From the sequence record NC_008152.1: 44,385 nucleotides of DNA. One strand, given 5' to 3'. The stretch comes from Escherichia phage K1-5. Below the pieces are notes generated by a model that ran no database searches, had not been told where the DNA came from, and worked only from the letters and a program-made list of their open reading frames with translations. The position numbers were made by a program, and so were the translations under genes. Below, piece by piece: positions 24,926-44,385 of the stretch (the stretch's first letter is position 1; each line of letters starts with the position of its first letter).

Positions 24926-27327
24926 TGGAAGTACAAGGTTCATTAGGTAGACAAATCCAAGGGATTAGCCAGCAGCCGCCAGCGGTACGCTTGGATGGTC
25001 AGTGCACAGCTATGGTTAATATGATACCTGATGTAGTGAATGGTACTCAATCACGCATGGGTACAACTCATATTGCAAAGATACTTGATGCGGGGACTGA
25101 TGACATGGCTACTCATCATTATCGCAGAGGTGATGGTGATGAAGAGTATTTCTTCACGTTGAAGAAAGGACAAGTTCCTGAGATATTTGATAAGTATGGG
25201 CGCAAATGTAATGTGACTTCACAAGATGCACCTATGACCTACCTCTCTGAGGTTGTTAATCCAAGGGAAGATGTGCAATTCATGACGATAGCTGATGTTA
25301 CTTTCATGCTTAATCGTAGGAAAGTAGTTAAAGCTAGTAGCAGGAAGTCACCTAAAGTTGGAAACAAAGCCATTGTGTTTTGTGCGTATGGTCAATATGG
25401 TACATCTTATTCCATTGTAATTAATGGGGCCAACGCTGCTAGTTTTAAAACACCGGATGGTGGAAGTGCAGACCATGTTGAACAAATTCGAACTGAACGT
25501 ATCACTTCTGAATTGTACTCTAAGTTGCAGCAATGGAGCGGTGTGAGTGACTATGAAATACAAAGAGACGGTACTAGTATATTTATCGAGAGACGGGATG
25601 GTGCTAGCTTTACAATAACAACCACCGATGGTGCAAAAGGTAAGGACTTAGTGGCTATCAAGAATAAAGTTAGCTCTACTGACCTACTCCCTTCTCGTGC
25701 GCCTGCTGGTTATAAAGTACAAGTGTGGCCTACTGGCAGCAAACCTGAGTCTCGTTACTGGCTGCAAGCTGAGCCTAAAGAGGGAAACCTTGTGTCTTGG
25801 AAAGAAACAATAGCTGCTGATGTATTACTTGGGTTTGATAAAGGCACAATGCCTTACATTATTGAACGTACAGATATCATCAACGGCATAGCTCAATTCA
25901 AGATAAGACAAGGTGATTGGGAAGATCGTAAAGTAGGGGATGACTTGACTAACCCTATGCCCTCTTTTATTGATGAGGAAGTACCCCAGACAATAGGTGG
26001 AATGTTCATGGTGCAGAACCGCCTATGCTTTACAGCAGGTGAAGCGGTTATTGCTTCTCGTACATCATACTTCTTCGATTTCTTTCGTTATACGGTTATC
26101 TCTGCATTGGCAACTGACCCCTTTGATATTTTCTCAGATGCTAGTGAAGTCTACCAGCTAAAACATGCAGTGACCTTAGATGGCGCTACCGTGTTGTTCT
26201 CTGATAAGTCACAATTCATACTGCCAGGCGATAAGCCTTTAGAGAAGTCAAATGCACTGCTTAAGCCTGTTACAACATTTGAAGTGAACAATAAAGTGAA
26301 GCCAGTAGTAACTGGTGAATCGGTAATGTTTGCCACTAATGATGGTTCTTACTCTGGTGTACGAGAGTTCTATACAGACTCTTATAGTGACACTAAGAAG
26401 GCACAAGCAATCACAAGTCATGTGAATAAACTCATCGAAGGTAACATTACCAACATGGCAGCAAGCACCAATGTCAACAGGTTACTTGTCACTACCGATA
26501 AGTATCGTAACATAATCTACTGCTACGATTGGTTATGGCAAGGAACAGACCGTGTACAATCAGCATGGCATGTATGGAAGTGGCCTATAGGTACAAAGGT
26601 GCGAGGTATGTTTTATTCTGGTGAATTACTTTACCTGCTCCTTGAGCGAGGAGATGGCGTGTATCTGGAGAAGATGGACATGGGTGATGCACTAACCTAC
26701 GGTTTGAATGACCGCATCAGAATGGATAGGCAAGCAGAGTTAGTCTTCAAGCATTTCAAAGCAGAAGATGAATGGGTATCTGAGCCGCTCCCTTGGGTTC
26801 CTACTAACCCAGAACTTTTAGATTGCATCTTAATCGAGGGTTGGGATTCATATATTGGCGGCTCTTTCTTATTCAAGTACAACCCTAGTGACAATACTTT
26901 GTCTACAACCTTTGATATGTATGATGACAGCCATGTAAAAGCGAAGGTTATTGTTGGTCAGATTTACCCTCAAGAGTTTGAACCTACGCCTGTGGTTATC
27001 AGAGACAATCAAGACCGTGTATCCTACATTGATGTACCAGTTGTAGGATTGGTTCACCTTAATCTTGACATGTACCCCGATTTCTCCGTAGAAGTTAAGA
27101 ATGTGAAGAGTGGTAAAGTACGTAGAGTATTAGCGTCAAACCGTATAGGTGGTGCTCTCAATAATACAGTAGGCTATGTTGAACCGAGAGAAGGTGTCTT
27201 CAGATTTCCACTGAGAGCTAAGAGCACGGATGTTGTTTATCGTATTATTGTAGAGTCACCTCACACATTCCAGCTTCGTGATATTGAGTGGGAAGGGAGC
27301 TACAATCCAACCAAAAGGAGGGTCTAA
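24925..27327 (+). CDS. Tail tubular protein B (gp12-like)
   Basis: Track ORF 24895; ATG 24925 overlaps previous stop (TAATG) after GGGAGGA; 800 aa (T7 gp12 is about 794 aa). Confidence 0.8.
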   Translation: MEVQGSLGRQIQGISQQPPAVRLDGQCTAMVNMIPDVVNGTQSRMGTTHIAKILDAGTDDMATHHYRRGDGDEEYFFTLKKGQVPEIFDKYGRKCNVTSQDAPMTYLSEVVNPREDVQFMTIADVTFMLNRRKVVKASSRKSPKVGNKAIVFCAYGQYGTSYSIVINGANAASFKTPDGGSADHVEQIRTERITSELYSKLQQWSGVSDYEIQRDGTSIFIERRDGASFTITTTDGAKGKDLVAIKNKVSSTDLLPSRAPAGYKVQVWPTGSKPESRYWLQAEPKEGNLVSWKETIAADVLLGFDKGTMPYIIERTDIINGIAQFKIRQGDWEDRKVGDDLTNPMPSFIDEEVPQTIGGMFMVQNRLCFTAGEAVIASRTSYFFDFFRYTVISALATDPFDIFSDASEVYQLKHAVTLDGATVLFSDKSQFILPGDKPLEKSNALLKPVTTFEVNNKVKPVVTGESVMFATNDGSYSGVREFYTDSYSDTKKAQAITSHVNKLIEGNITNMAASTNVNRLLVTTDKYRNIIYCYDWLWQGTDRVQSAWHVWKWPIGTKVRGMFYSGELLYLLLERGDGVYLEKMDMGDALTYGLNDRIRMDRQAELVFKHFKAEDEWVSEPLPWVPTNPELLDCILIEGWDSYIGGSFLFKYNPSDNTLSTTFDMYDDSHVKAKVIVGQIYPQEFEPTPVVIRDNQDRVSYIDVPVVGLVHLNLDMYPDFSVEVKNVKSGKVRRVLASNRIGGALNNTVGYVEPREGVFRFPLRAKSTDVVYRIIVESPHTFQLRDIEWEGSYNPTKRRV

Positions 27328-28049
27328 TGGCTATAGGTTCAGCCGTTATGGCTGGTATGTCTTCTATTGGTAGCATGTTTGCAGGCAGTGGTGCAGCAGC
27401 CGCTGCTGGAGGTGCTGCCGCAGGTGGCGGAGGTTTGCTAGGTTCACTAGGTGGATTCCTAAGTGGCTCTACTGCTGGTTTCTCTAATGCTGGCCTTCTT
27501 GGTGCTGGCCTTCAAGGGTTAGGCTTGATTGGTGATCTATTTGGTGGAAGTGATGAAGCCAAGGCGATGAAGAAAGCACAAGAAGAGCAATGGCGGCAGC
27601 AGCTTATTGCTACACAAGAGGCGTACAAGACAGTGGCAGACGCAGAACGTTCTGCTGCTAAACAATATCATGCAGATGCAATCAGTAATCAGGCTTCACT
27701 GCTACAGCAGCGAGCACAGGTTGCATTACTTGCTGGGGCTACTGGTACTGGTGGTAATTCTGTGTCCTCTATGCTTAATGACTTAGCAGCAGATGGCGGC
27801 AGGAACCAGAGTACTATCATTGATAACTATGAGAATCAGAAGATTAATTTCACCAACCAGCTTAAGTCTATCCAACGTGGTGGTCAGATGCAGATGCGTG
27901 AGTTTAAGAAGCCTTCTGCTATGAATACCTTGGTTAAAGGTATTCCAAGTCTGGCATCTGCCTATGTAACTGGTAGTAAGTCTGGCAAGGCATTGGGTAA
28001 AGCCTTAACTGATTCTCGCACATATTCATCTGGAACAAGAGGTATTTAA
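27327..28049 (+). CDS. Internal virion protein (gp14-like), Gly-rich N-terminus
   Basis: Track ORF 27288; ATG 27327 after AAGGAGGG; synteny. Confidence 0.55.
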   Translation: MAIGSAVMAGMSSIGSMFAGSGAAAAAGGAAAGGGGLLGSLGGFLSGSTAGFSNAGLLGAGLQGLGLIGDLFGGSDEAKAMKKAQEEQWRQQLIATQEAYKTVADAERSAAKQYHADAISNQASLLQQRAQVALLAGATGTGGNSVSSMLNDLAADGGRNQSTIIDNYENQKINFTNQLKSIQRGGQMQMREFKKPSAMNTLVKGIPSLASAYVTGSKSGKALGKALTDSRTYSSGTRGI

Positions 28050-30997
28050 TGGCAATTGAGCGACAAGCAGTACAAGGTCTGCCACAAGTGCAGGCCACTT
28101 CTCCTAATGTCATGACCTTTGCACCTCAACAAGTGGGAGGTGTGGAGGCTGGCGTGGCTTCTACCTCCGGTAGTAGGTTTATCGAAGACCTTATTCGTGC
28201 AGCAAGCAGCGTGGCTGATGTTACCACTGGTATCCTTAATCAGAAGATTGAGGAAGATAAGGTTGTTCAAATGGAACGGGCATATAACGGATTAATGCCT
28301 TCTGAGGATGCAACTCGTGGTGGCGCTCGTGCTAACATGCTTGTCAAAGCTCAACTGCTAGCTAATGATGAAGCAGCACGAATGAAAGACATGGCTACTC
28401 GTTTCCAAGGAACGGATGACGAATGGACACAACTTATGGTTGACTCTCGTAATGAGATGCAGAATAAGCTGTTCCAGCAATACCCTGAGTTGCAAGGTGA
28501 CAAAGATACTATGCGTATGGTCACTAATGTCTTCCAAGAACAGCAGCCTCAGATTTGGGCTACACGAACCCAGCATAAACTTGACCGTGAACAAGCAGAC
28601 CGTGAGGATACCTTTGACGGGCGAGTGGCTTCTACTTGGGATTCTAATATTGACCCTGAAGCCTCTGGCTATGCTTTACAGGAACGAATCCGCGAAGGTC
28701 TTACTCAAGGATTACTACCTGAACAGATGTACAAGAAGTTAGTCCAGCGAGCAATTTCACTTGCACAAGGCGGTGATGTTAGCATGGCTGAAGCCCTGAA
28801 GTATGTGAAGGACGATAAGGGTGTTTCTGTTTATGCTAAGAATCCACAGCTTATCACAGCCATCACTAGTGGTAATGCAGTTTGGGCTAGGAATAATGTA
28901 GCTGATGTAACTCGTATGTCTTTCGAAGTTAAAGAATCCTACCTTGCAGGTGATTTAACTGATGAAGAATTGTTGGAACGAGCACAGCACATTAATAATC
29001 TGACAGGTAACTCTGTCTTCTCTAATCCAGAACTAGAGGCACTGATGCGCCAACGGGCTAAGCAGAATGCAGAGCTAGGTGCAATGCAGGATATGCGACG
29101 TGAGCTTTACTCCGACCGCCTGACTGGCTTCCAAGGTAAGACTGATAAAGAGAAGAAGGCTTACATTGATGTTATCAAACAGGATAGCCAACTTTATGCA
29201 GACCAGCAAATCAAACAACGTGGCTTGGACCCTTACAGTCAAGAGGCTGAAGCTATTCGTGGTGCAGTGGAAGTGCAGCGCCTGCAATTCATGAACTCCA
29301 AAGGCTTAGTGGATGATACCTTTGAGTCTCGTATCAAAGCCATGGAATCTATGCTATCGCCTGAGCACTTTGCCAAGGGCGAACCACAGGAGTTGATGAC
29401 TATTCGCCAGTTGTGGGAACAGTTACCAGAAGAGAGCCGAGGTGTCTTTGGTGACACGGTGAATGGCTACATGGATAACTACAACACTGCACTACAAATG
29501 GGAGAGACACCTTTGCAGGCTGCAAGGTTTGCGCGTAAAGCACAGCAGAAATTCTCTCGTACTGAGAAGGAAACCAAGAAGTTCAACTCAGCTATTGGAG
29601 ATGCACTGGATGAGGTATCTGGTGCTGGCTGGTTTGATGGTAAAACCGAAGTGTCAGACTTAGGTAAAGCTATTGCGGAAGAAGAGTTACGAGCTAAGGC
29701 CAATATGTTGTGGTCTAGTGGTATGCGTAACATGGATTCCATCAAGAAGGCTTTAATTACTTGGGGCAATAAACGCTACACTCAATCAGAGGATGCAAAG
29801 ACTTCCGGTGGCTATTTCATTAAAGGTGATTACACTTCTGCATCTGATATGCTTATGTCAGTTGGGAAAGGCGTAAACCCTACCGATGTACCTCTGGCGC
29901 TTGGTAGGTATGTAGAAACACAGATGCCAGAATTGAAGAAGGAGCTTCAAGAGGGGGAAACTAAAGATGATATATACATTGATTACAATGAACAGAAAGG
30001 TACTTTCGTGATTCGTGCTGGTGCAGCAGGTCGCCCTCTTTCTGGAGTAATCCCTGTAACCTCTTTAGATACCACTTCACTACTAGATTCTGCCTATCAG
30101 AAGAAAGTAGAGGAACGAGATAAAGGCGAGTATGTTCACCCGTATCGTACAGATATTGGTGCACAAGAGCCTATGCCAGCTAAACCAACTGCCAAAGATA
30201 TTGGTAAATTTGGACTAGCTAACTTCCTCATGTCTTCTGCTTTTGCTTCTGGTGAGAATCTGCCTTCTAACTTCGAGATTAACTATCGAGGTAATATGCA
30301 ACAATTCTATGACAAGCTAGCTATGGATGAGAATAAAGATAAAGTTGGCTTTAATAAGGCAACTGGAACCTTTACTCCATATAAAGACGCTCACGGTGAG
30401 TCTATCGGTTACGGTCATTTCTTAACGGAAGAAGAGAAGCGAAACGGGTATATTAAGATTGGCGATGAACTAGTTCCCTATCGAGGGTCTATGTCTCAGC
30501 TTACAGAGAGCAAGGCTCGCGCTCTTATGGAGCAAGATGCTAAGAAGCATGTGCCTCCTACTCGTGACTGGAAGATTCCGTTTGACCAGATGCACCCTGC
30601 ACAGCAACGTGGCTTGATGGATTTAAGCTACAATTTAGGTAAAGGTGGAATCCAGAACTCACCGCGTGCTCTTGCTGCATTCAAAGCTGGTAAGCTTACG
30701 GAGGGCTTTATCGAAATGCTGGGCACTGCATCAAGTGAAGGTAAGCGTATTCCTGGCCTACTGAAGCGACGCGCTGAGGCATACAATATGGCATCTGCTG
30801 GTGGTGTGCCTAAGATTACCGAAGTGGAGACTCGTGAAGATGGCTCCATGTGGGTTAGGTTTGGTGGACCTATGCCAGCAGGTTCTGTCTCGGCATGGAC
30901 TCATAAACGTATTGGCGCGGATGGTTGGTATCAGGTTTATGAGGCTGCACCTACCAAGTTAGCTAAAGATTCTAAGGTAGGTAAAGTTAAGTTGTAG
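28049..30997 (+). CDS. Internal virion (core) protein, gp15-like, with C-terminal T4-lysozyme-like (GH24) domain
   Basis: 982 aa; C-terminal YKDAHGESIGYGH...LMDLSYNLGKGG...LLKRRAEAYNMA parallels T4 lysozyme YKDTEGYYTIGIGH...ALINMVFQMG. Confidence 0.75.
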   Translation: MAIERQAVQGLPQVQATSPNVMTFAPQQVGGVEAGVASTSGSRFIEDLIRAASSVADVTTGILNQKIEEDKVVQMERAYNGLMPSEDATRGGARANMLVKAQLLANDEAARMKDMATRFQGTDDEWTQLMVDSRNEMQNKLFQQYPELQGDKDTMRMVTNVFQEQQPQIWATRTQHKLDREQADREDTFDGRVASTWDSNIDPEASGYALQERIREGLTQGLLPEQMYKKLVQRAISLAQGGDVSMAEALKYVKDDKGVSVYAKNPQLITAITSGNAVWARNNVADVTRMSFEVKESYLAGDLTDEELLERAQHINNLTGNSVFSNPELEALMRQRAKQNAELGAMQDMRRELYSDRLTGFQGKTDKEKKAYIDVIKQDSQLYADQQIKQRGLDPYSQEAEAIRGAVEVQRLQFMNSKGLVDDTFESRIKAMESMLSPEHFAKGEPQELMTIRQLWEQLPEESRGVFGDTVNGYMDNYNTALQMGETPLQAARFARKAQQKFSRTEKETKKFNSAIGDALDEVSGAGWFDGKTEVSDLGKAIAEEELRAKANMLWSSGMRNMDSIKKALITWGNKRYTQSEDAKTSGGYFIKGDYTSASDMLMSVGKGVNPTDVPLALGRYVETQMPELKKELQEGETKDDIYIDYNEQKGTFVIRAGAAGRPLSGVIPVTSLDTTSLLDSAYQKKVEERDKGEYVHPYRTDIGAQEPMPAKPTAKDIGKFGLANFLMSSAFASGENLPSNFEINYRGNMQQFYDKLAMDENKDKVGFNKATGTFTPYKDAHGESIGYGHFLTEEEKRNGYIKIGDELVPYRGSMSQLTESKARALMEQDAKKHVPPTRDWKIPFDQMHPAQQRGLMDLSYNLGKGGIQNSPRALAAFKAGKLTEGFIEMLGTASSEGKRIPGLLKRRAEAYNMASAGGVPKITEVETREDGSMWVRFGGPMPAGSVSAWTHKRIGADGWYQVYEAAPTKLAKDSKVGKVKL

Positions 30998-31007
30998 TAC
31001 CTAACTC

Positions 31008-31037
31008 AAGGCTTGTCTCACATGTGAGACAGGTCTT
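31008..31037. promoter_or_regulatory. Extended hairpin around palindrome copy 5
   Basis: aaggcttGTCTCACATGTGAGACaggtcttt; between gp15-like and gp16-like genes. Confidence 0.6.
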
Positions 31038-31061: not shown

Positions 31062-34000
31062 ATGGAACAAGACATTAAGACTAATTGGGCTGGATATGTC
31101 CAGTCTACTCCTGAGCCGTTTTCTATTGAGGCGGCTCCGGTATCGGCTCCTACGATACGCCAGCGTAATGAGTTACAAGAGCAAGTTCTTGAAGCTAAAG
31201 CTGACGCTGATATCTTAGGTGCTGTAGGTGCTGCCTTCCAGAATGAGTGGTTGGCATTCGGAGGCAAGCGGTGGTATGACCGTGCCACTGCTGATTTCAC
31301 ACCTCAACCAGACTTTGAGATACAACCTGAGCAACGTGAAGCACTACGTTTCAAATATGGTACGGATATGATGCAGACAATCACTGAGGGTGTTCGTTCT
31401 GAGGATGAATTGAACTTCCGTATTCAGAATGCGGATGAAGACCTTGAGCGCAATAAGCGCATTGCTCAGGCTGGCTGGGTTGGCTCTGTGGCGACGATTG
31501 GCGCTGCTGTGCTTGACCCTGTGGGATGGGTTGCCTCTATTCCAACCGGTGGTGCCGCTAAAGTTGGACTCGTAGGCCGTGCTGTGCGTGGCGCTATCGC
31601 CGCTGGCGTGAGTAATGCCGCTATTGAATCCGTATTGGTCCAAGGTGACATGACTCGTGATTTAGATGACATTATGGTAGCACTGGGTTCCGGTATGGCT
31701 ATGGGTGGCGTTATTGGCGCTGTAGCGCGTGGTAGGGCCACTAAGCTCAGTGAGCAAGGTGATGACAGGGCTGCTAGCATTGTGCGCAGTGCAGACGCAG
31801 GGGACCGCTATGTTCGTGCTGTTGCCGATGACAGTATCGGTGCGATGCGTGTTAAGGGCGCAGAGGTTCTCACTGAGGGTGTATTCGATATCTCCAGTAA
31901 GAGTGAAGACCTACTGAAAACCTTGCAACGAGAAGGTAATGCGATTGATATGACACCTCGCCGTTGGGCTGGAACTATGTCTGCCCTCGGTACTGTCGTG
32001 CACTCATCTAAAGATGCAAGTATCCGAGGCCTTGGTGCTCGTCTGTTTGAATCCCCACAAGGTCTAGGTATGCAGAAGGCATCTGCTAGTCTTATGCAGA
32101 ATACTAACTTAAATCGCCTGAAATCTGCTGATATGAACCGCTTCAATGATGGGTTTGATTTGTGGCTTAAAGAGAATAATATCAATCCAGTAGCAGGGCA
32201 TACCAACTCTCATTATGTACAGCAATACAATGAAAAGGTGTGGGAGGCAGTGCGTATTGGCATGGATGAGTCTACACCTAAATCTATCCGCATGGCTGCT
32301 GAGGGACAACAGGCTATGTACAGAGAGGCGCTGGCTTTACGTCAACGTTCTGGTGAAGCGGGATTTGAAAAGGTAAAAGCCGACAACAAATATATGCCTG
32401 ATATCTTTGATAGTATGAAAGCCAGACGTCAATTCGATATGCACGATAAAGAAGACATCATCGAACTTTTCTCTCGTGCCTACCAGAATGGCGCTCGTAA
32501 GATTCCAAAGGAAGCAGCAGATGAGATTGCACGAGCACAGGTAAATCGCGTTGCTGATGCTACCTTAACTGGAAAGCTTAGTTTTGAAAAGGCAATGTCA
32601 GGTCAGACTAAGGCAGAGTATGAAGCTATCATGCGTAAGGCAGGCTTCAGTGATGAAGAAATTGAAAAGATGATAGAAGCTCTGGATAACAAAGAAACCA
32701 GAGATAACATCTCTAACCGAGCTAAAATGAGTTTAGGATTAGATGTTACTCAAGAATACAATGGCATTCGTATGCGTGACTTCATGAATACCAACGTGGA
32801 AGAGCTAACAGATAACTATATGAAGGAAGCAGCAGGTGGCGCTGCATTGGCTCGCCAAGGCTTCTCTACCTATCAGGCTGCACTTAATGCAATTGACCTT
32901 GTAGAGCGAAATGCACGAAACGCGGCTAAGGATAGCAAGGCTAGTTTGGCATTAGATGAAGAGATTCGTCAGATGCGAGAAGGTCTTCGCCTGATTATGG
33001 GCAAGTCGATTGATGCAGACCCACAGGCTATATCTACTAAGATGATGCGTCGTGGTCGTGATATCACAGGTGTGCTTCGCTTAGGTCAAATGGGCTTCGC
33101 ACAGCTAGGTGAACTTGCCAACTTTATGGGTGAATTTGGTATTGCTGCAACTACTATGGCTTTAGGTAAGCAATTCCGCTTCACCTCTAAGGCGTTGCGT
33201 AATGGCGATGGCTTCTTCCGAGATAAGAACTTAGCTGAGGTTGAGAGAATGGTGGGGTACATTGGTGAGGATAACTGGCTAACAACTAAGGGTGCACGTC
33301 CTGATGAATTTGGTGATGTAACCACAGTAAGAGGGATGATGGCTCACTTTGACCAATCCATGAACTCAATACGTCGTGCTCAAACCAACCTATCACTCTT
33401 CCGCATGGCACAGGGTTCTCTGGAGCGAATGACTAATAGGCAAATAGCTTTGTCTTTCATTGACCACCTTGAAGGCAAGAAGATTATTCCTCAGAAGAAA
33501 CTGGAGGAACTTGGTCTTACTCAGGAGTTCATGACTAACCTACAGAAGCACTATGATGCTAACTCTAAAGGTTCTGGCTTGCTTGGCTTTGATACAATGC
33601 CTTATGCCATGGGTGAAACTTTAGCTAATGCTATTCGTCGTAAGTCAGGTCTAATCATCCAACGTAACTTCATTGGTGATGAAGGTATCTGGATGAACAA
33701 AGCACTAGGTAAGACATTTGCACAGCTTAAGTCATTCTCTCTTGTATCTGGTGAGAAGCAATTTGGTCGAGGGATTCGCCACGATAAAATTGGTCTTGCT
33801 AAGAAGACAGCTTACGGGTTTGCTTTGGGTTCAATAGTGTATGCGGCAAAAGCCTATGTGAACTCTATTGGGCGAGAAGACCAAGATGAATATTTGGAAG
33901 AGAAGTTATCGCCTAAAGGGTTGGCCTTTGGTGCAATGGGTATGATGAGTACAACTGCTGTATTTAGTCTAGGTGGAGATTTCTTAGGTGGCCTAGGTGT

Positions 34001-34247
34001 TCTACCTTCCGAACTCATTCAATCACGCTATGAAGCAGGTTTCCAAAGTAAGGGTCTGATTGACCAAATACCTCTGGTTGGCGTTGGTGCAGATGCAGTA
34101 AATCTGGCTAACTCAATCAAGAAGTATGCAGAAGGTGACACAGAAGGTGTAGATATCGCTAAGCGAGCACTCCGTCTTGTGCCACTTACCAATATAATAG
34201 GTGTCCAAAACGCATTGCGTTATGGCTTAGATGAACTGGAGGATTGA
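31062..34247 (+). CDS. Internal virion (core) protein, gp16-like
   Basis: 1061 aa; Gly/Ala-rich hydrophobic segment GWVGSVATIGAAVLDPVGWVAS; synteny. No obvious transglycosylase motif at the N-terminus. Confidence 0.7.
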   Translation: MEQDIKTNWAGYVQSTPEPFSIEAAPVSAPTIRQRNELQEQVLEAKADADILGAVGAAFQNEWLAFGGKRWYDRATADFTPQPDFEIQPEQREALRFKYGTDMMQTITEGVRSEDELNFRIQNADEDLERNKRIAQAGWVGSVATIGAAVLDPVGWVASIPTGGAAKVGLVGRAVRGAIAAGVSNAAIESVLVQGDMTRDLDDIMVALGSGMAMGGVIGAVARGRATKLSEQGDDRAASIVRSADAGDRYVRAVADDSIGAMRVKGAEVLTEGVFDISSKSEDLLKTLQREGNAIDMTPRRWAGTMSALGTVVHSSKDASIRGLGARLFESPQGLGMQKASASLMQNTNLNRLKSADMNRFNDGFDLWLKENNINPVAGHTNSHYVQQYNEKVWEAVRIGMDESTPKSIRMAAEGQQAMYREALALRQRSGEAGFEKVKADNKYMPDIFDSMKARRQFDMHDKEDIIELFSRAYQNGARKIPKEAADEIARAQVNRVADATLTGKLSFEKAMSGQTKAEYEAIMRKAGFSDEEIEKMIEALDNKETRDNISNRAKMSLGLDVTQEYNGIRMRDFMNTNVEELTDNYMKEAAGGAALARQGFSTYQAALNAIDLVERNARNAAKDSKASLALDEEIRQMREGLRLIMGKSIDADPQAISTKMMRRGRDITGVLRLGQMGFAQLGELANFMGEFGIAATTMALGKQFRFTSKALRNGDGFFRDKNLAEVERMVGYIGEDNWLTTKGARPDEFGDVTTVRGMMAHFDQSMNSIRRAQTNLSLFRMAQGSLERMTNRQIALSFIDHLEGKKIIPQKKLEELGLTQEFMTNLQKHYDANSKGSGLLGFDTMPYAMGETLANAIRRKSGLIIQRNFIGDEGIWMNKALGKTFAQLKSFSLVSGEKQFGRGIRHDKIGLAKKTAYGFALGSIVYAAKAYVNSIGREDQDEYLEEKLSPKGLAFGAMGMMSTTAVFSLGGDFLGGLGVLPSELIQSRYEAGFQSKGLIDQIPLVGVGADAVNLANSIKKYAEGDTEGVDIAKRALRLVPLTNIIGVQNALRYGLDELED

Positions 34248-35218: not shown

Positions 35219-35413
35219 ATGATTAACTCCGAACTGGTAGATAGTGGTGTGAAGCTTGCGCCACCTGCACTCATATCAGGTGGGTACTTCCTCGGTATCA
35301 GTTGGGATAATTGGGTGTTAATAGCAACATTCATTTATACCGTGTTGCAAATTGGGGACTGGTTTTATAATAAGTTCAAGATTTGGAGGGAGAAGCGTGA
35401 GCGTACACAATAA
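35219..35413 (+). CDS. Class II holin (T7 gp17.5-like)
   Basis: 64 aa; AAGGAGG RBS; IYTVLQIG with charged C-terminus resembles T7 holin AYTVVQIG...; directly before the small terminase gene as in T7. Confidence 0.75.
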   Translation: MINSELVDSGVKLAPPALISGGYFLGISWDNWVLIATFIYTVLQIGDWFYNKFKIWREKRERTQ

Positions 35414-35696
35414 ACATGCAGCTACAGAGGACGAGGTTGGCATTCTGCATGGTGCTATTACCAAAATCTTCAATAAGAAAGCACAGGCAATACTGGACAC
35501 TATAGAAGAAGACCCTGATGCAGCATTACATTTAGTGTCTGGTAAGGATATTGGTGCGATGTGTAAGTGGGTTCTTGATAACGGCATTACCGCCACACCT
35601 GCTGCACAGCAGGAAGAGTCCAAGTTATCTAAGCGCCTCAAGGCTATCCGAGAGGCATCCAGTGGTAAGATAATTCAATTCACTAAGGAGGATTGA
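35397..35696 (+). CDS. Terminase small subunit (gp18-like)
   Basis: Track ORF 35352; likely GTG 35397 start after GGAGGGAG; directly upstream of the large subunit; assignment by synteny. Confidence 0.55.
   Translation: MSVHNKHAATEDEVGILHGAITKIFNKKAQAILDTIEEDPDAALHLVSGKDIGAMCKWVLDNGITATPAAQQEESKLSKRLKAIREASSGKIIQFTKED
35488..35508 (+). promoter_or_regulatory. Near-consensus phage promoter embedded in the small terminase gene
   Basis: caatactggacactatagaag; 18 of 21 positions match, all mismatches at the 5' edge. Confidence 0.45.
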
Positions 35697-37594
35697 TGGC
35701 TAAGGCAAGAGAATCACAAGCGGAGGCTCTTGCCAGATGGGAGATGCTACAGGAGTTACAGCAGACCTTTCCTTACACCGCGGAAGGTTTGCTTCTCTTT
35801 GCAGATACAGTTATTCATAACTTAATTGCAGGCAACCCTCATCTGATTCGTATGCAGGCGGATATCTTGAAGTTCCTATTTTACGGACACAAGTACCGCC
35901 TCATCGAAGCGCCTCGTGGTATCGCTAAGACAACACTATCAGCAATCTATACGGTATTCCGTATTATTCATGAACCGCATAAGCGTATCATGGTTGTGTC
36001 CCAAAACGCCAAGCGAGCAGAGGAAATCGCAGGTTGGGTAGTTAAAATCTTCCGTGGCTTAGACTTTCTTGAGTTTATGCTGCCGGATATCTACGCTGGG
36101 GACCGTGCATCCGTTAAGGCGTTTGAGATTCATTACACCCTACGTGGTAGTGATAAGTCTCCTTCTGTATCCTGTTACTCAATCGAAGCAGGTATGCAGG
36201 GTGCTCGTGCTGATATTATTCTAGCGGATGACGTAGAGTCGATGCAGAATGCTCGTACGGCAGCGGGCCGTGCCTTGCTTGAGGAGCTGACTAAGGAGTT
36301 TGAATCTATCAACCAGTTTGGGGATATCATTTACCTTGGTACACCTCAGAACGTAAACTCTATCTACAACAACCTACCTGCTCGTGGTTACTCTGTTCGT
36401 ATCTGGACTGCGCGTTACCCTTCAGTAGAGCAAGAGCAATGTTATGGCGACTTCCTTGCACCTATGATTGTTCAAGATATGAAGGACAACCCAGCACTTC
36501 GCTCAGGGTACGGGTTGGATGGTAATAGTGGTGCACCTTGTGCCCCTGAAATGTATGATGATGAAGTCCTGATTGAGAAGGAAATCTCTCAGGGTGCTGC
36601 TAAGTTCCAGCTTCAGTTCATGCTTAACACTCGCATGATGGATGCTGACAGATACCCATTACGCCTGAACAATCTAATCTTCACCTCGTTTGGTACAGAG
36701 GAAGTCCCTGTGATGCCTACGTGGAGTAATGATTCCATAAACATCATTGGTGATGCACCTAAGTATGGTAACAAGCCTACGGATTTCATGTACAGACCTG
36801 TAGCTCGCCCATATGAATGGGGTGCTGTCTCCCGCAAGATTATGTATATTGACCCTGCGGGTGGTGGTAAGAACGGAGATGAGACGGGTGTAGCCATCGT
36901 ATTCCTGCACGGCACATTCATTTATGTGTATCAGTGCTTTGGTGTACCTGGCGGATACCGAGAGTCGTCCCTGAATCGCATTGTGCAGGCCGCAAAGCAG
37001 GCGGGTGTTAAAGAGGTATTCATTGAGAAGAACTTTGGTCATGGCGCGTTTGAGGCGGTAATTAAGCCGTACTTTGAACGAGAGTGGCCTGTAACTCTGG
37101 AAGAGGATTACGCCACCGGACAGAAAGAGTTGCGTATCATTGAGACGCTGGAGCCGCTCATGGCAGCCCATAGGCTTATCTTCAATGCAGAGATGGTGAA
37201 GTCAGACTTTGAGTCGGTACAGCACTATCCGCTTGAACTACGCATGTCCTACAGTCTTTTCAATCAAATGTCGAACATAACGATTGAGAAGAACAGCCTC
37301 CGGCACGATGACCGCCTAGACGCCCTGTATGGCGCTATACGGCAATTAACTTCTCAGATAGACTATGACGAGGTTACACGGATTAATCGCCTCAGAGCGC
37401 AGGAGATGCGCGATTACATCCATGCTATGAACACACCTCATCTACGCAGGGCAATGCTATATGGAGATTACGGTACTGAGCGAAGAGTGACCAACACTTC
37501 CGTAGCGATGCAGCAGCGAGTTTACGGGCAGAACTACCGAAATAAATCGGCAAGCAGAAATACACTTTCTGCAAGGATTTCAAGGACTTATTAA
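35696..37594 (+). CDS. Terminase large subunit (gp19-like)
   Basis: 632 aa; AAGGAGG RBS; deviant Walker A RGIAKTT, Walker B IILADDVE, RNaseH-like nuclease segment IDPAGGGKNGDETGVAI. Confidence 0.9.
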   Translation: MAKARESQAEALARWEMLQELQQTFPYTAEGLLLFADTVIHNLIAGNPHLIRMQADILKFLFYGHKYRLIEAPRGIAKTTLSAIYTVFRIIHEPHKRIMVVSQNAKRAEEIAGWVVKIFRGLDFLEFMLPDIYAGDRASVKAFEIHYTLRGSDKSPSVSCYSIEAGMQGARADIILADDVESMQNARTAAGRALLEELTKEFESINQFGDIIYLGTPQNVNSIYNNLPARGYSVRIWTARYPSVEQEQCYGDFLAPMIVQDMKDNPALRSGYGLDGNSGAPCAPEMYDDEVLIEKEISQGAAKFQLQFMLNTRMMDADRYPLRLNNLIFTSFGTEEVPVMPTWSNDSINIIGDAPKYGNKPTDFMYRPVARPYEWGAVSRKIMYIDPAGGGKNGDETGVAIVFLHGTFIYVYQCFGVPGGYRESSLNRIVQAAKQAGVKEVFIEKNFGHGAFEAVIKPYFEREWPVTLEEDYATGQKELRIIETLEPLMAAHRLIFNAEMVKSDFESVQHYPLELRMSYSLFNQMSNITIEKNSLRHDDRLDALYGAIRQLTSQIDYDEVTRINRLRAQEMRDYIHAMNTPHLRRAMLYGDYGTERRVTNTSVAMQQRVYGQNYRNKSASRNTLSARISRTY

Positions 37595-37613: not shown

Positions 37614-37755
37614 GAAGGCCCAGATAATAAGAGAAAATAATAGGTAATATATATATAGGTTAACCTAGGTTATATAGGTATGCCTTAGTATGGGTGTACT
37701 CCTGTACACCCTATTCCTTACTACCTTACTATATTTACATAATAGGAGAGAGACA

Positions 37756-38034
37756 ATGGCTAATGATTATAGTAGTCAACCATTAACAGGTAAGTCTAAG
37801 AGAAAGCAGGTACAACCTGTAAGTGAAGAACTAATGCTTCCGGTGCTCAAAAAAGAGGAAGTTAGTAAGAAAAGCAATGTTATTAATGATGCCACCAAAT
37901 CAGGTAAACAGAAAGGGGCCATGGTGTGCCTTGAAGTGAAAGGTGGTGTATTGAAGATTGCTATCGCGGTTGATGGCAAAGAAGATTCAGAGTGGAAGTT
38001 AGTAACAGTGGAACCAACTGTTAACCCAGTTTAA
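37756..38034 (+). CDS. Hypothetical protein (92 aa), paralogue A
   Basis: Track ORF 37690; ATG 37756 after AGGAGAG; shares KKEE..SK...SGKQKGAMV.LE...IAVA motif with the next ORF. Confidence 0.55.
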   Translation: MANDYSSQPLTGKSKRKQVQPVSEELMLPVLKKEEVSKKSNVINDATKSGKQKGAMVCLEVKGGVLKIAIAVDGKEDSEWKLVTVEPTVNPV

Positions 38035-38052: not shown

Positions 38053-38343
38053 ATGGCTAAATATGGTACTACAGGTTCTGTTACTGGTCAGGCTTTTCGA
38101 GTAAAAGCAGTACAAACTATTGCAACGGCAATCCCGATGCCTGTTGTTAAAGAAGAAGACCTTAAGAGTAAAGACCACCCTATCAACATCAAACATTTAT
38201 CAGGTAAACAGAAAGGTGCAATGGTTGCTCTTGAGAAAGGTGACACAACCTTACATATTGCTGTTGCACGTGGTAGTGAACCCACAGACCCTTGGGATGT
38301 AACTGGTATGGAAAAGGACGCTGTTACTCCAGCAGGGGTATAA
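38053..38343 (+). CDS. Hypothetical protein (96 aa), paralogue B
   Basis: TAAGGAGG RBS; SGKQKGAMVALEKGDTTLHIAVA. Confidence 0.6.
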   Translation: MAKYGTTGSVTGQAFRVKAVQTIATAIPMPVVKEEDLKSKDHPINIKHLSGKQKGAMVALEKGDTTLHIAVARGSEPTDPWDVTGMEKDAVTPAGV

Positions 38344-38345
38344 TA

Positions 38346-38690
38346 ATGCTTAATAAATACTTCAAGCGTAAAGAGTTTGCTTGCCGTTGTGGGTGCGGTA
38401 CATCCACTGTTGATGCTGAATTACTACAGGTAGTCACAGATGTGCGTGAGCACTTTGGTTCTCCTGTAGTTATCACTTCGGGTCATCGCTGTGCTAAGCA
38501 CAATGCCAATGTAGGTGGCGCTAAGAACTCCATGCATCTTACTGGTAAGGCTGCTGACATTAAAGTGTCTGGCATATTACCTTCTGAAGTGCATAAGTAT
38601 CTTACTAGCAAATACCAAGGCAAGTATGGTATAGGTAAGTATAACTCCTTCACTCACATCGATGTACGGGATGGTTGTGCGCGATGGTAA
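38346..38690 (+). CDS. Endolysin, peptidase M15-type zinc peptidase
   Basis: Track ORF 38292; ATG 38346; SGHRCAKHNANVGGAKNSMHLTGKAADI matches the M15 H..D...H zinc-binding signature. Confidence 0.8.
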   Translation: MLNKYFKRKEFACRCGCGTSTVDAELLQVVTDVREHFGSPVVITSGHRCAKHNANVGGAKNSMHLTGKAADIKVSGILPSEVHKYLTSKYQGKYGIGKYNSFTHIDVRDGCARW

Positions 38691-38948: not shown

Positions 38949-39162
38949 GTTTCTAGAAGTTCTGGCAGGTCTTATTGGCCTGCTTGTCTCTGCTAAGAAG
39001 AAACAAGAAGAGAAGGAGGCACAAAGTGAAGCGAATCATGTTAGTGACAACCCTTCTGATTGGTTCGCTGACCACTTCCGGGTGTCAGCAGGCGTTACCA
39101 GAGAAAGCAATGGTGAAACCTCTGAGGCCGACGCTGACGGCAGTTTACGAGGTAGACGATAA
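38941..39162 (+). CDS. Candidate i-spanin (Rz-like), 73 aa
   Basis: GTG start in track; N-terminal TM FLEVLAGLIGLLVSA then charged region; an o-spanin-like ORF starts inside it. Short for an i-spanin. Confidence 0.35.
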   Translation: MNKFLEVLAGLIGLLVSAKKKQEEKEAQSEANHVSDNPSDWFADHFRVSAGVTRESNGETSEADADGSLRGRR

Positions 39163-39235
39163 GGTCTGCTTTAGTAAGCCTGACGCTACAAAACTTGGTT
39201 TGTACATTCTCTCGCTAGAACGCGGATACAATTAA
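39026..39235 (+). CDS. Candidate o-spanin (Rz1-like) lipoprotein
   Basis: Track ORF 38975; GTG 39026 6 nt after AAGGAGG (or ATG 39038); signal MKRIMLVTTLLIGSLTTSGC with lipobox-like TSGC. Confidence 0.5.
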   Translation: MKRIMLVTTLLIGSLTTSGCQQALPEKAMVKPLRPTLTAVYEVDDKVCFSKPDATKLGLYILSLERGYN

Positions 39236-44151: not shown

Positions 44152-44385
44152 TCGCCCTCGCCCTCGCCGGGTTGTCCCCATAGGGTGGCCTGAGGGAATC
44201 CGTCTTCGACGGGCAGGGCTGATGTACTCCTTGTCTAGTACAAGGGAGGCGGAGGGAACGCCTAGGGAGGCCTAGGAATGGCTTAGTGGTGGACAAGGTG
44301 ATTACCTTAGTGAAGCCTCTTAGTGCATTCCTGAGGCCATTCAGGGCGTTTATGAGGGATTGACAGGGTGTGAGGGCGTGGGCTA
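44152..44385. repeat. Right direct terminal repeat (234 bp)
   Basis: Exact copy of 1..234 read by eye; window ends exactly at the repeat end. Confidence 0.95.

Follow-up and report, generated by a model that had tools for sequence, protein, structure and literature searches.

A probable virion-associated lysozyme domain on the gp15-position ejection protein of Escherichia phage K1-5

The DNA analyzed here (the window) is the 44,385-nucleotide stretch of sequence record NC_008152.1 from Escherichia phage K1-5. It is a whole genome of the K1-5/K1E type (Vectrevirus, SP6 supergroup), bounded by terminal repeats of 234 bp. The gene under study occupies 28049..30997 on the plus strand, where 982 codons are read without interruption to give a protein with a computed mass of 109.3 kDa. 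The protein was covered over its full length by PHROG 4290 ('lysozyme domain-containing protein') and was identical at 971 of 982 residues to the product of K1E gene 35, which, like homologues in GenBank, is annotated with the same words. Genes in this region were ordered gp12-like nozzle, gp14-like, 982-aa gene, gp16-like and tail-fibre adaptor. The gp14-like internal virion protein gene (27288..28049, plus strand) was identified by PF24072 (T7_gp14, E 2.9e-32); its stop codon and the starting ATG of the 982-aa gene overlap. Its mechanically called start is a GTG, and the start annotated in relatives lies ~15–40 codons downstream. On the other side, the gp16-like internal virion protein (1061 aa; 31062..34247, plus strand) was identified by PHROG 342 and by BLASTP to T7 gp16. 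Between these IVP-B and IVP-D homologues, the 982-aa gene holds the gp15 (IVP-C) position of an ejection or internal virion protein.

Most of the protein (residues ~45–691; 28181..30121, plus strand) was assigned to a gp15-like body, which is predicted to form an internal-core or periplasmic-tunnel part. Residues 45–691 were all-helical in AF2 secondary structure, and the best PDB matches of the body model in Foldseek were T7 gp15 chains (9jyy_G, 7eyb_A and 6ysz_A) and a gp15 homologue (9vvp_I), at E values from 1.3e-6 (9jyy_G) to 0.12 and a probability of 1.00. TM scores were 0.16–0.26 to full-length 9jyy_G, 7eyb_A and 9vvp_I and 0.54 to 6ysz_A, the low values arising because the body model is elongated (pTM 0.34). 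Structural matches of the 982-aa protein in BFVD included many 'internal virion protein C' entries. By sequence, T7 gp15 showed no significant similarity to the protein in BLASTP (best E 1.1) and was not retrieved when the protein was run against PDB with phmmer, and no Pfam family matched the N-terminal 711 aa. Because IVP-C proteins diverge rapidly (PMC4819975), the missing match to T7 gp15 weakens common descent but does not exclude it. Since the body lacks sequence similarity to T7 gp15, its assignment rests on synteny and fold match; the term 'gp15-like' in the original prediction is upheld by gene position, by the all-helical body and by the Foldseek and BFVD matches, although the sequence comparison was not significant. 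Two further traits by which gp15/IVP-C proteins are recognized, a place in the virion core at ~8–12 copies and ejection at infection, are taken from the literature (PMC5380687, PMC8954989).

A GH24 (T4-lysozyme-like) muralytic domain was placed at residues ~746–915 (30284..30793, plus strand). PF00959 (Phage_lysozyme) matched residues 776–910 over profile positions 9–124 of 125 (E 4.3e-10, 40.4 bits; curated gathering cut-off 22.3 bits). Against PDB, T4 lysozyme (T4L) was the only match for residues 776/777–890, with the single sequence in phmmer (E 1e-3) as with the family profile (E 4e-7). The domain was modeled (pLDDT 88.4, pTM 0.82) and the model was searched with Foldseek, where the top PDB matches were all GH24 enzymes (T4L, R21, DLP12 RrrD, AbLys1, a fungal GH24 muramidase and PHAb10) at a probability of 1.00 and TM scores of 0.55–0.70 (normalised to target), with the whole target covered. 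The lysozyme fold starts at about residue 746 (window position ~30284), opens with a helix at 746–762 and ends at about residue 915. A GH24-like block at the C-terminus of the gp15-like protein had been expected, and it is borne out by PF00959, the PDB profile match and Foldseek; absence of the fold had been named in advance as the finding that would count against it, and Pfam and Foldseek found the fold. The block had been drawn at 30370..30997 (residues ~775–982). The lysozyme does lie in that region, but the boundaries do not hold, since the fold runs from ~746 to ~915 and a beta domain follows it.

Conservation was assessed in an alignment of 30 sequences, composed of the window protein and 29 homologues. 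These 29 cluster representatives (38–97% identity, 976–989 aa) come from independent ~44-kb contigs and have the same domain architecture. Because this length and domain order are shared by 29 independent homologues, an artefactual two-gene fusion was ruled out and the fusion is real rather than a product of assembly. With the C-terminal 271 aa as query, a word-indexed homology search found three fragments only, and an exhaustive representative search (1.84 billion proteins) returned 288 relatives at E<=1e-3. Among the best 150 of these 288, about two dozen were proteins of 890–1030 aa in which the match lay at the C-terminus; the architecture is widespread.

The canonical catalytic set of GH24 enzymes is E11, D20 and T26 in T4L, spaced as Glu-x8-Asp-x5-Thr. 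Candidate catalytic residues in the window protein were Glu761 (30329-30331), Asp780 (30386-30388) and Ser785 (30401-30403), of which the latter two align with T4L Asp20 and Thr26. Glu761 was invariant (30/30 sequences), Asp780 was kept in 28/30, and position 785 was S, T or N; also invariant were Asn762, directly after Glu761, as well as G767, G773, Y778 and G787-x-G789-H790 (the GYGH motif). All three residue types are present, and their spacing is non-canonical, with Glu-x18-Asp (Glu761 to Asp780) in place of Glu-x8-Asp. The canonical Glu position, nine residues before Asp780, is occupied by Ala771, and Glu761 lies 10 residues farther upstream. Glu761 would be the candidate general acid, judging from its invariance and its location where the first helix ends.

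This displaced spacing, with Ala771 at the Glu position and a 10-aa insertion, speaks for a domain that is catalytically dead and kept only as a peptidoglycan-binding or structural tunnel module, and the weak T4L match from a single sequence (E ~1e-3) points the same way. Set against that reading, the E761-N762 pair and the other invariant positions, together with near-invariant D780, are held across 38–97% identity, and the 'EN' motif is also kept in a large set of relatives that includes free-standing, endolysin-sized proteins of ~170 aa. Zymogram activity of virions is, moreover, cited in reviews for the SP6 and K1-5 proteins (PMC5380687). A dead domain is accordingly considered extremely improbable. 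An active domain could instead have its main role when infection ends, as a further endolysin set free from protein that was never assembled, and not as an entry enzyme. For T7, the LT domain of virion gp16 affects lysis slightly and is able to evolve so as to offset loss of the endolysin (PMC2680503); the homologue in ULINTec7 is annotated 'putative endolysin', and the M15 peptidase of SP6, K1E and K1-5 was named endolysin without biochemical evidence (PMC4837284). That peptidase is nonetheless part of a dedicated lysis cassette in the window, in which a T7-type holin (35219..35413; PF10746), a Peptidase_M15_3 protein (38346..38690, plus strand; PF08291, E 6.7e-34) and an Rz-like gene were found; the AAPEc6 homologue of the M15 protein is annotated 'endolysin'. 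Because a separate Peptidase_M15_3 endolysin exists, the GH24 domain is not the dedicated lysis enzyme, and its candidacy as the lysis endolysin was set aside as unlikely. The GH24 domain is also covalently joined to the rest of a 109-kDa structural protein in 30/30 aligned sequences, and in reviews the SP6 and K1-5 proteins are counted among virion-associated lysins (PMC5380687). A principal role at the end of infection is therefore judged improbable, if somewhat less so than a dead domain.

The lysozyme fold is followed by a beta-rich domain of ~60 aa (residues 923–981; 30815..30994, plus strand), delimited by AF2 strands (923–928, 934–938, 960–964 and 978–981) and by conservation. It had a pLDDT >90 in the domain model and was conserved in SP6-like relatives and in more distant relatives of ~950 aa. 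A profile of this domain against PDB gave a best E of 0.4 (spurious porin and nanobody matches), and Pfam searches on 19 members gave nothing below E 0.026. It is conceivable, though on balance doubtful, that these features define a distinct 'EN-type' GH24 subfamily in which a duplicated 10-residue beta-hairpin displaces the Glu and a new C-terminal beta module is added. The hairpin pair GFNKATGTFT / PYKDAHGESI may then be what puts the catalytic Glu 18 residues before the Asp. The beta module may anchor the enzyme to peptidoglycan or dock onto the gp16-like subunit, and by docking it may replace the role of the N-terminal 'wings/molecular tape' of T7 gp16. Neither the displaced Glu nor the C-terminal beta domain was found in the searchable literature.

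In T7, gp16 decorates the gp15 tube, and its N-terminal SLT (GH23) domain cuts peptidoglycan; this LT domain spans residues 1–156, with E37 as catalytic Glu, and a T7 gp16 LT mutant is impaired at 20 °C and on stationary-phase cells. The N-terminal placement on gp16, on which the original prediction relied, was confirmed in the Pfam test, in which T7 gp16 served as the positive control (SLT PF01464, E 1.7e-31, aa 15–127). In the same test, no SLT domain and no Pfam family at all was matched in the 1061-aa gp16-like protein of the window. PHROG 342 matched it at profile positions 162–1227 only, and in BLASTP its residues 89–363 aligned to T7 gp16 residues 275–572, with a second covered stretch at T7 residues 1100–1279. 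Because window residue 89 is paired with T7 residue 275, the first ~186 residues of T7 gp16 are without counterpart. The expectation that the gp16-like protein would lack the transglycosylase thus agrees with the empty Pfam result, with an alignment that begins at T7 residue 275 and with the positive T7 control.

In several GenBank relatives, the SLT-less gp16 homologue is named 'peptidoglycan lytic exotransglycosylase' and the lysozyme carrier is left as 'hypothetical protein' or 'baseplate hub'. These labels are misleading for both proteins.

T7 and the window share the 14-15-16 ejection-protein operon and the presumed task of local peptidoglycan cleavage for a periplasmic tunnel. The gp16 proteins are homologous beyond T7 residue 275, and the gp15 bodies are alike in fold, with no sequence similarity detected between them. 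The two systems differ in enzyme family (SLT/GH23 in T7, a GH24 lysozyme fold in the window) and in carrier (the gp16 N-terminus in T7, the gp15-like C-terminus in the window), on either side of the same gene-15/gene-16 junction. With T4 lysozyme (gpe) and the T4 gp5 tail lysozyme, the window domain has the GH24 fold in common (T4L: Foldseek probability 1.00, TM 0.55–0.62 normalised to T4L) at about 18–20% identity. It differs from them by the 10 residues inserted between the helix that bears the catalytic Glu and the hairpin that bears the Asp, and by its fusion to an ejection protein, whereas T4 gpe is free-standing and T4 gp5 belongs to the baseplate hub.

Further counterparts are phiKMV gp36 and LKA1 gp36, proteins of ~850–900 aa that likewise occupy the gp15 position between gp14-like and gp16-like genes and carry a C-terminal lysozyme domain. 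The phiKMV gp36 lysozyme, gp36C, was reportedly described by Lavigne in 2004 and by Briers in 2006. An LKA1 'Lysozyme' entry was a BFVD structural match to the window protein (E 3.6e-10), and an SLT match was likewise absent from the phiKMV gp16-like protein. Sequence similarity between phiKMV gp36 and the window protein was confined to the YKDAxGxSxGxGH hairpin; phiKMV gp36 has the canonical Glu-x8-Asp (FEAYRGEAYKD) where the window protein has Glu-x18-Asp, and it ends with the lysozyme, the ~60-aa beta domain being present only in the window protein. K1E gp35 (982 aa), K1-5 Gp38 and SP6 Gp36 (Molineuxvirinae) are orthologues of the 982-aa protein with no difference of substance. Genes and domains follow the same order as in the window, the C-terminal region of SP6 Gp36 is 63% identical, and the mass listed for K1-5 Gp38 equals that of the window protein (PMC5380687).

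Taken with a probability of roughly 0.9, the 982-aa protein is a gp15-position (IVP-C) ejection protein with a C-terminal virion-associated GH24 lysozyme. Inside the capsid it would share the internal core with the gp14-like and gp16-like proteins. On infection, ejection through the portal-tail channel would be followed by refolding in the periplasm within a trans-envelope DNA tunnel, and local cutting of MurNAc-GlcNAc bonds by the lysozyme domain would let this tunnel through the peptidoglycan layer. We infer this pathway and site of action, and the role of Glu761 as general acid, by analogy with T7; muramidase activity and virion association are drawn from the literature on the SP6 and K1-5 proteins, as cited in reviews. 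In Table 2 of PMC5380687, SP6 Gp36 (107 kDa) and K1-5 Gp38 (YP_654136.1, 109 kDa) appear as virion-associated lysozymes with reference to Moak & Molineux 2004; the zymogram that the original prediction had proposed as a check is thereby cited as already carried out for SP6 and K1-5. PMC4837284 cites Dobbins 2004 and Scholl 2004 for lysozyme similarity at the C-terminus of SP6 Gp36. Tail-lysozyme domains are sometimes found on IVP-C homologues (PMC4819975, Hardies 2016). For K1E/K1-5, the gp15-like homologue gp35 is stated to bear the lysozyme activity that in T7 resides on gp16 (PMC8954989, Swanson 2022), a published statement that supports the prediction of a relocated muralytic function.

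The swap of the lysozyme from gp16 to gp15 is thus already known, being both published and annotated in databases for SP6/K1-5/K1E-type phages. Because the underlying principle has been published (Moak & Molineux 2004; Scholl 2004; PMC4819975; PMC8954989), no new biology is added by its recovery here. The GH24 domain could be used as a stand-alone virion-associated lysin in enzybiotic work, like phiKMV gp36C. For podoviruses, the principle is a conserved gp14/15/16 tunnel with an exchangeable module for cutting peptidoglycan, which is located at the gene-15/16 junction and may be fused to the protein on one side or the other.

The gene at 28049..30997 (+), which begins with an ATG overlapping the upstream gene's stop codon, encodes a 982-aa protein in which the original prediction had placed a T4-lysozyme-like (GH24) block at 30370-30997 (residues ~775-982), at the C-terminus of a gp15-like internal virion protein. 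Residues 776-910 matched Pfam Phage_lysozyme (PF00959; E 4.3e-10, 40.4 bits, curated cut-off 22.3), and the protein was matched end to end by PHROG 4290, ‘lysozyme domain-containing protein’. T4 lysozymes (T4L) were the only credible matches in all-PDB sequence searches with the protein alone (E ~1e-3) and with a profile of 18 homologues (E 4e-7). Residues 712-982 were modeled with AlphaFold2 on the alignment of 18 homologues (pLDDT 88.4, pTM 0.82) and returned 221 Foldseek PDB matches at E<=10, the top ones all GH24 enzymes or T4L fusion constructs. These included T4L, phage 21 R21, DLP12 RrrD, AbLys1, a fungal GH24 muramidase and PHAb10, each at probability 1.00, with TM 0.55-0.70 (target-normalised) for the free-standing enzymes. 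A GH24 domain at this C-terminal end was thus confirmed by PF00959, PHROG 4290, the PDB profile search and Foldseek. Its predicted location held and its predicted start did not: in the models, the fold ran from helix 746-762, ~30 residues earlier, to near residue 915.

The lysozyme was followed by a beta-rich domain of ~60 aa (30815-30994, +; aa 923-981), identified from the AlphaFold2 models and conservation, with invariant DGSM and GW motifs and no sequence match in Pfam or PDB. Its conservation extends through SP6-like and Era103-like proteins to more remote relatives of ~950 aa, but phiKMV-type gp36 proteins lack it.

The designation of the carrier as gp15-like was supported by position, composition and fold, without sequence similarity. 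The gene follows a T7_gp14-family member (27288..28049; PF24072, E 2.9e-32), itself preceded by the nozzle/gp12 gene. The 711-aa body showed no significant similarity to T7 gp15 by BLASTP and matched no Pfam family, and T7 gp15 likewise matched none. The full-length AlphaFold2 model (pLDDT 74, pTM 0.34) was helical from 45 to 691, and its best PDB fold matches were T7 gp15 (9jyy_G, E 1.3e-6; 7eyb_A; 6ysz_A; identity verified) and 9vvp_I, the gp15 homologue of phage E1004. In a viral structure library, matches included the ‘Lysozyme’ entries of Erwinia phage S2 (953 aa, E 9e-54) and LKA1, along with numerous T7-like phage entries named ‘internal virion protein C’.

The next gene downstream (31062..34247, +) encodes a 1061-aa gp16-like protein, assigned by PHROG 342 and by BLASTP to T7 gp16 (E 1e-8 and 8e-5). 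The prediction that it carries no transglycosylase was borne out. No Pfam family was matched at E<=0.01, and hence no SLT domain; T7 gp16, run through the same test as a positive control, matched SLT (PF01464, E 1.7e-31, residues 15-127). Residues 89-363 aligned with T7 gp16 residues 275-572, so the first ~186 residues of T7 gp16, including its lytic transglycosylase (LT) domain (residues 1-156; PMC8954989), have no counterpart. The PHROG 342 profile was likewise matched only from position 162. The name ‘peptidoglycan lytic exotransglycosylase’, given to this gene in some GenBank relatives, is probably an annotation error transferred from T7. The protein is 1061 aa in the window versus 1102 aa in K1E (record L004, 5881-9189), EEc2 (record L002, 11065-14373) and AAPEc6, all three longer by 41 charged, coiled-coil-like residues (AHAQFEAESAKIRQSEPDYKKAQEKIEELKKRLKLKEKDEA) that follow residue 626. 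Between the 982-aa gene and the gp16-like gene, a 13-bp perfect hairpin (GGCUUGUCUCACA/UGUGAGACAGGUC; 31008-31037) is followed by UCUUUAU (-21.1 kcal/mol; z-score -3.65 versus shuffles). A simple terminator scan did not flag this hairpin; its possible roles are phage-RNAP pausing or termination, RNase III cleavage and mRNA stabilisation.

The lysozyme finding is correct but already known. Table 2 of PMC5380687 lists SP6 Gp36 (107 kDa) and K1-5 Gp38 (YP_654136.1, 109 kDa) as virion-associated lysozymes, crediting zymograms of Moak & Molineux 2004; the computed mass here was 109.3 kDa. The relocation of muralytic function from gp16 had also been stated for K1E and K1-5, whose gp15-like homologue gp35 holds the lysozyme activity that T7 has on gp16 (PMC8954989). 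The SP6 Gp36 C-terminus was described as similar to lysozyme (Dobbins 2004 and Scholl 2004, as cited in PMC4837284), and IVP-C homologues variably host tail-lysozyme domains, e.g., in phiKMV (PMC4819975). K1E gene 35, identical at 971/982 residues, is annotated ‘lysozyme domain-containing protein’.

An exhaustive protein search gave 288 relatives at E<=1e-3; about two dozen of the best 150 were 890-1030-aa proteins matching at the C-terminus. The same architecture was present in 29 cluster representatives (38-97% identity, all 976-989 aa, mostly from ~44-kb contigs), which shows the fusion to be genuine and maintained by selection. Across 30 aligned sequences, Glu761-Asn762, Gly767, Gly773, Tyr778 and Gly787-x-Gly789-His790 were invariant, Asp780 was kept in 28, and position 785 was Ser, Thr or Asn. 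HMMER aligned Asp780 and Ser785 with T4L Asp20 and Thr26. Nine residues ahead of Asp780, where Glu would canonically stand, the protein has Ala771. In the model, the invariant Glu761, ten residues upstream of Ala771, is found where the first helix ends on its C-terminal side, the place that Glu11 takes in T4L, and we infer that it is a candidate general acid. The spacing in this region (aa 761-786; 30329-30406) is non-canonical, with Glu761 lying 18 rather than 8 residues before Asp780; in phiKMV gp36C, by contrast, the canonical interval is retained. A duplicated hairpin is suggested by the resemblance between residues 767-776 (GFNKATGTFT) and 777-786 (PYKDAHGESI). The ‘EN...G’ motif recurred in many relatives, some of them free-standing proteins of ~170 aa, and by sequence appears to define a large, subfamily-sized group.

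Perfect 234-bp direct repeats at both ends (1-234 and 44152-44385) mark the window as a complete linear genome of the T7 supergroup, with all large ORFs on the + strand. Dozens of Vectrevirus genomes (e.g., K1E, AAPEc6 and EEc2; Autographiviridae, Molineuxvirinae, SP6 supergroup) shared 92-99% DNA identity with it. Its two tailspikes, an 811-aa endosialidase (PF12217, E 1e-225) and a 632-652-aa protein with an endosialidase-chaperone domain, match the dual-specificity arrangement of K1-5. Length and the 109-kDa lysozyme protein agree with K1-5 as well, so the window represents this phage or an almost identical isolate. The terminase genes, small and large, are separated by an HNH endonuclease gene in AAPEc6 (record L003, 35476-37804) but not in the window (35693-37594), indicating a presence/absence polymorphism of a mobile element among close relatives. 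Adjacent small ORFs at 37690-38034 and 38053-38343 (114 and 96 aa) share an ‘SGKQKGAMV...’ motif and look like paralogues; neither matched Pfam, and the name ‘acetyl-CoA acetyltransferase’ given to their relatives is implausible.

A T7-type class II holin (35219..35413; PF10746) adjoins the tail-fibre adaptor gene. The lysis genes are split, with a Peptidase_M15_3 endolysin (38346..38690; E 6.7e-34) and an Rz-like spanin gene (38975..39235) ~3 kb beyond the holin, after the terminase. PMC4837284 noted that calling the M15 peptidase an endolysin had, at that time, no biochemical evidence behind it. Given these separate genes, the GH24 domain is not the dedicated lysis enzyme, and a function during entry would be consistent with this.

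The non-canonical Glu-Asp spacing and the unclassified beta domain are of mild interest and leave the verdict unaffected. Beyond a conserved GH24 lysozyme on a gp15-like protein, the mechanism draws on inference and literature. By analogy with T7 (PMC8954989, PMC2680503), the 982-aa protein would be packaged within the core of the capsid, pass out through the tail and refold to help form the periplasmic tunnel, where its lysozyme domain would open the peptidoglycan locally. The T7 muralytic module lies at the 15/16 junction, the same genomic junction as in the window, and the ‘wings’ of the T7 gp15 tube are the LT domain of gp16 (PMC8954989). Carried at the C-terminus of the gp15-like protein, a muralytic domain would plausibly be held in a place comparable to these wings.
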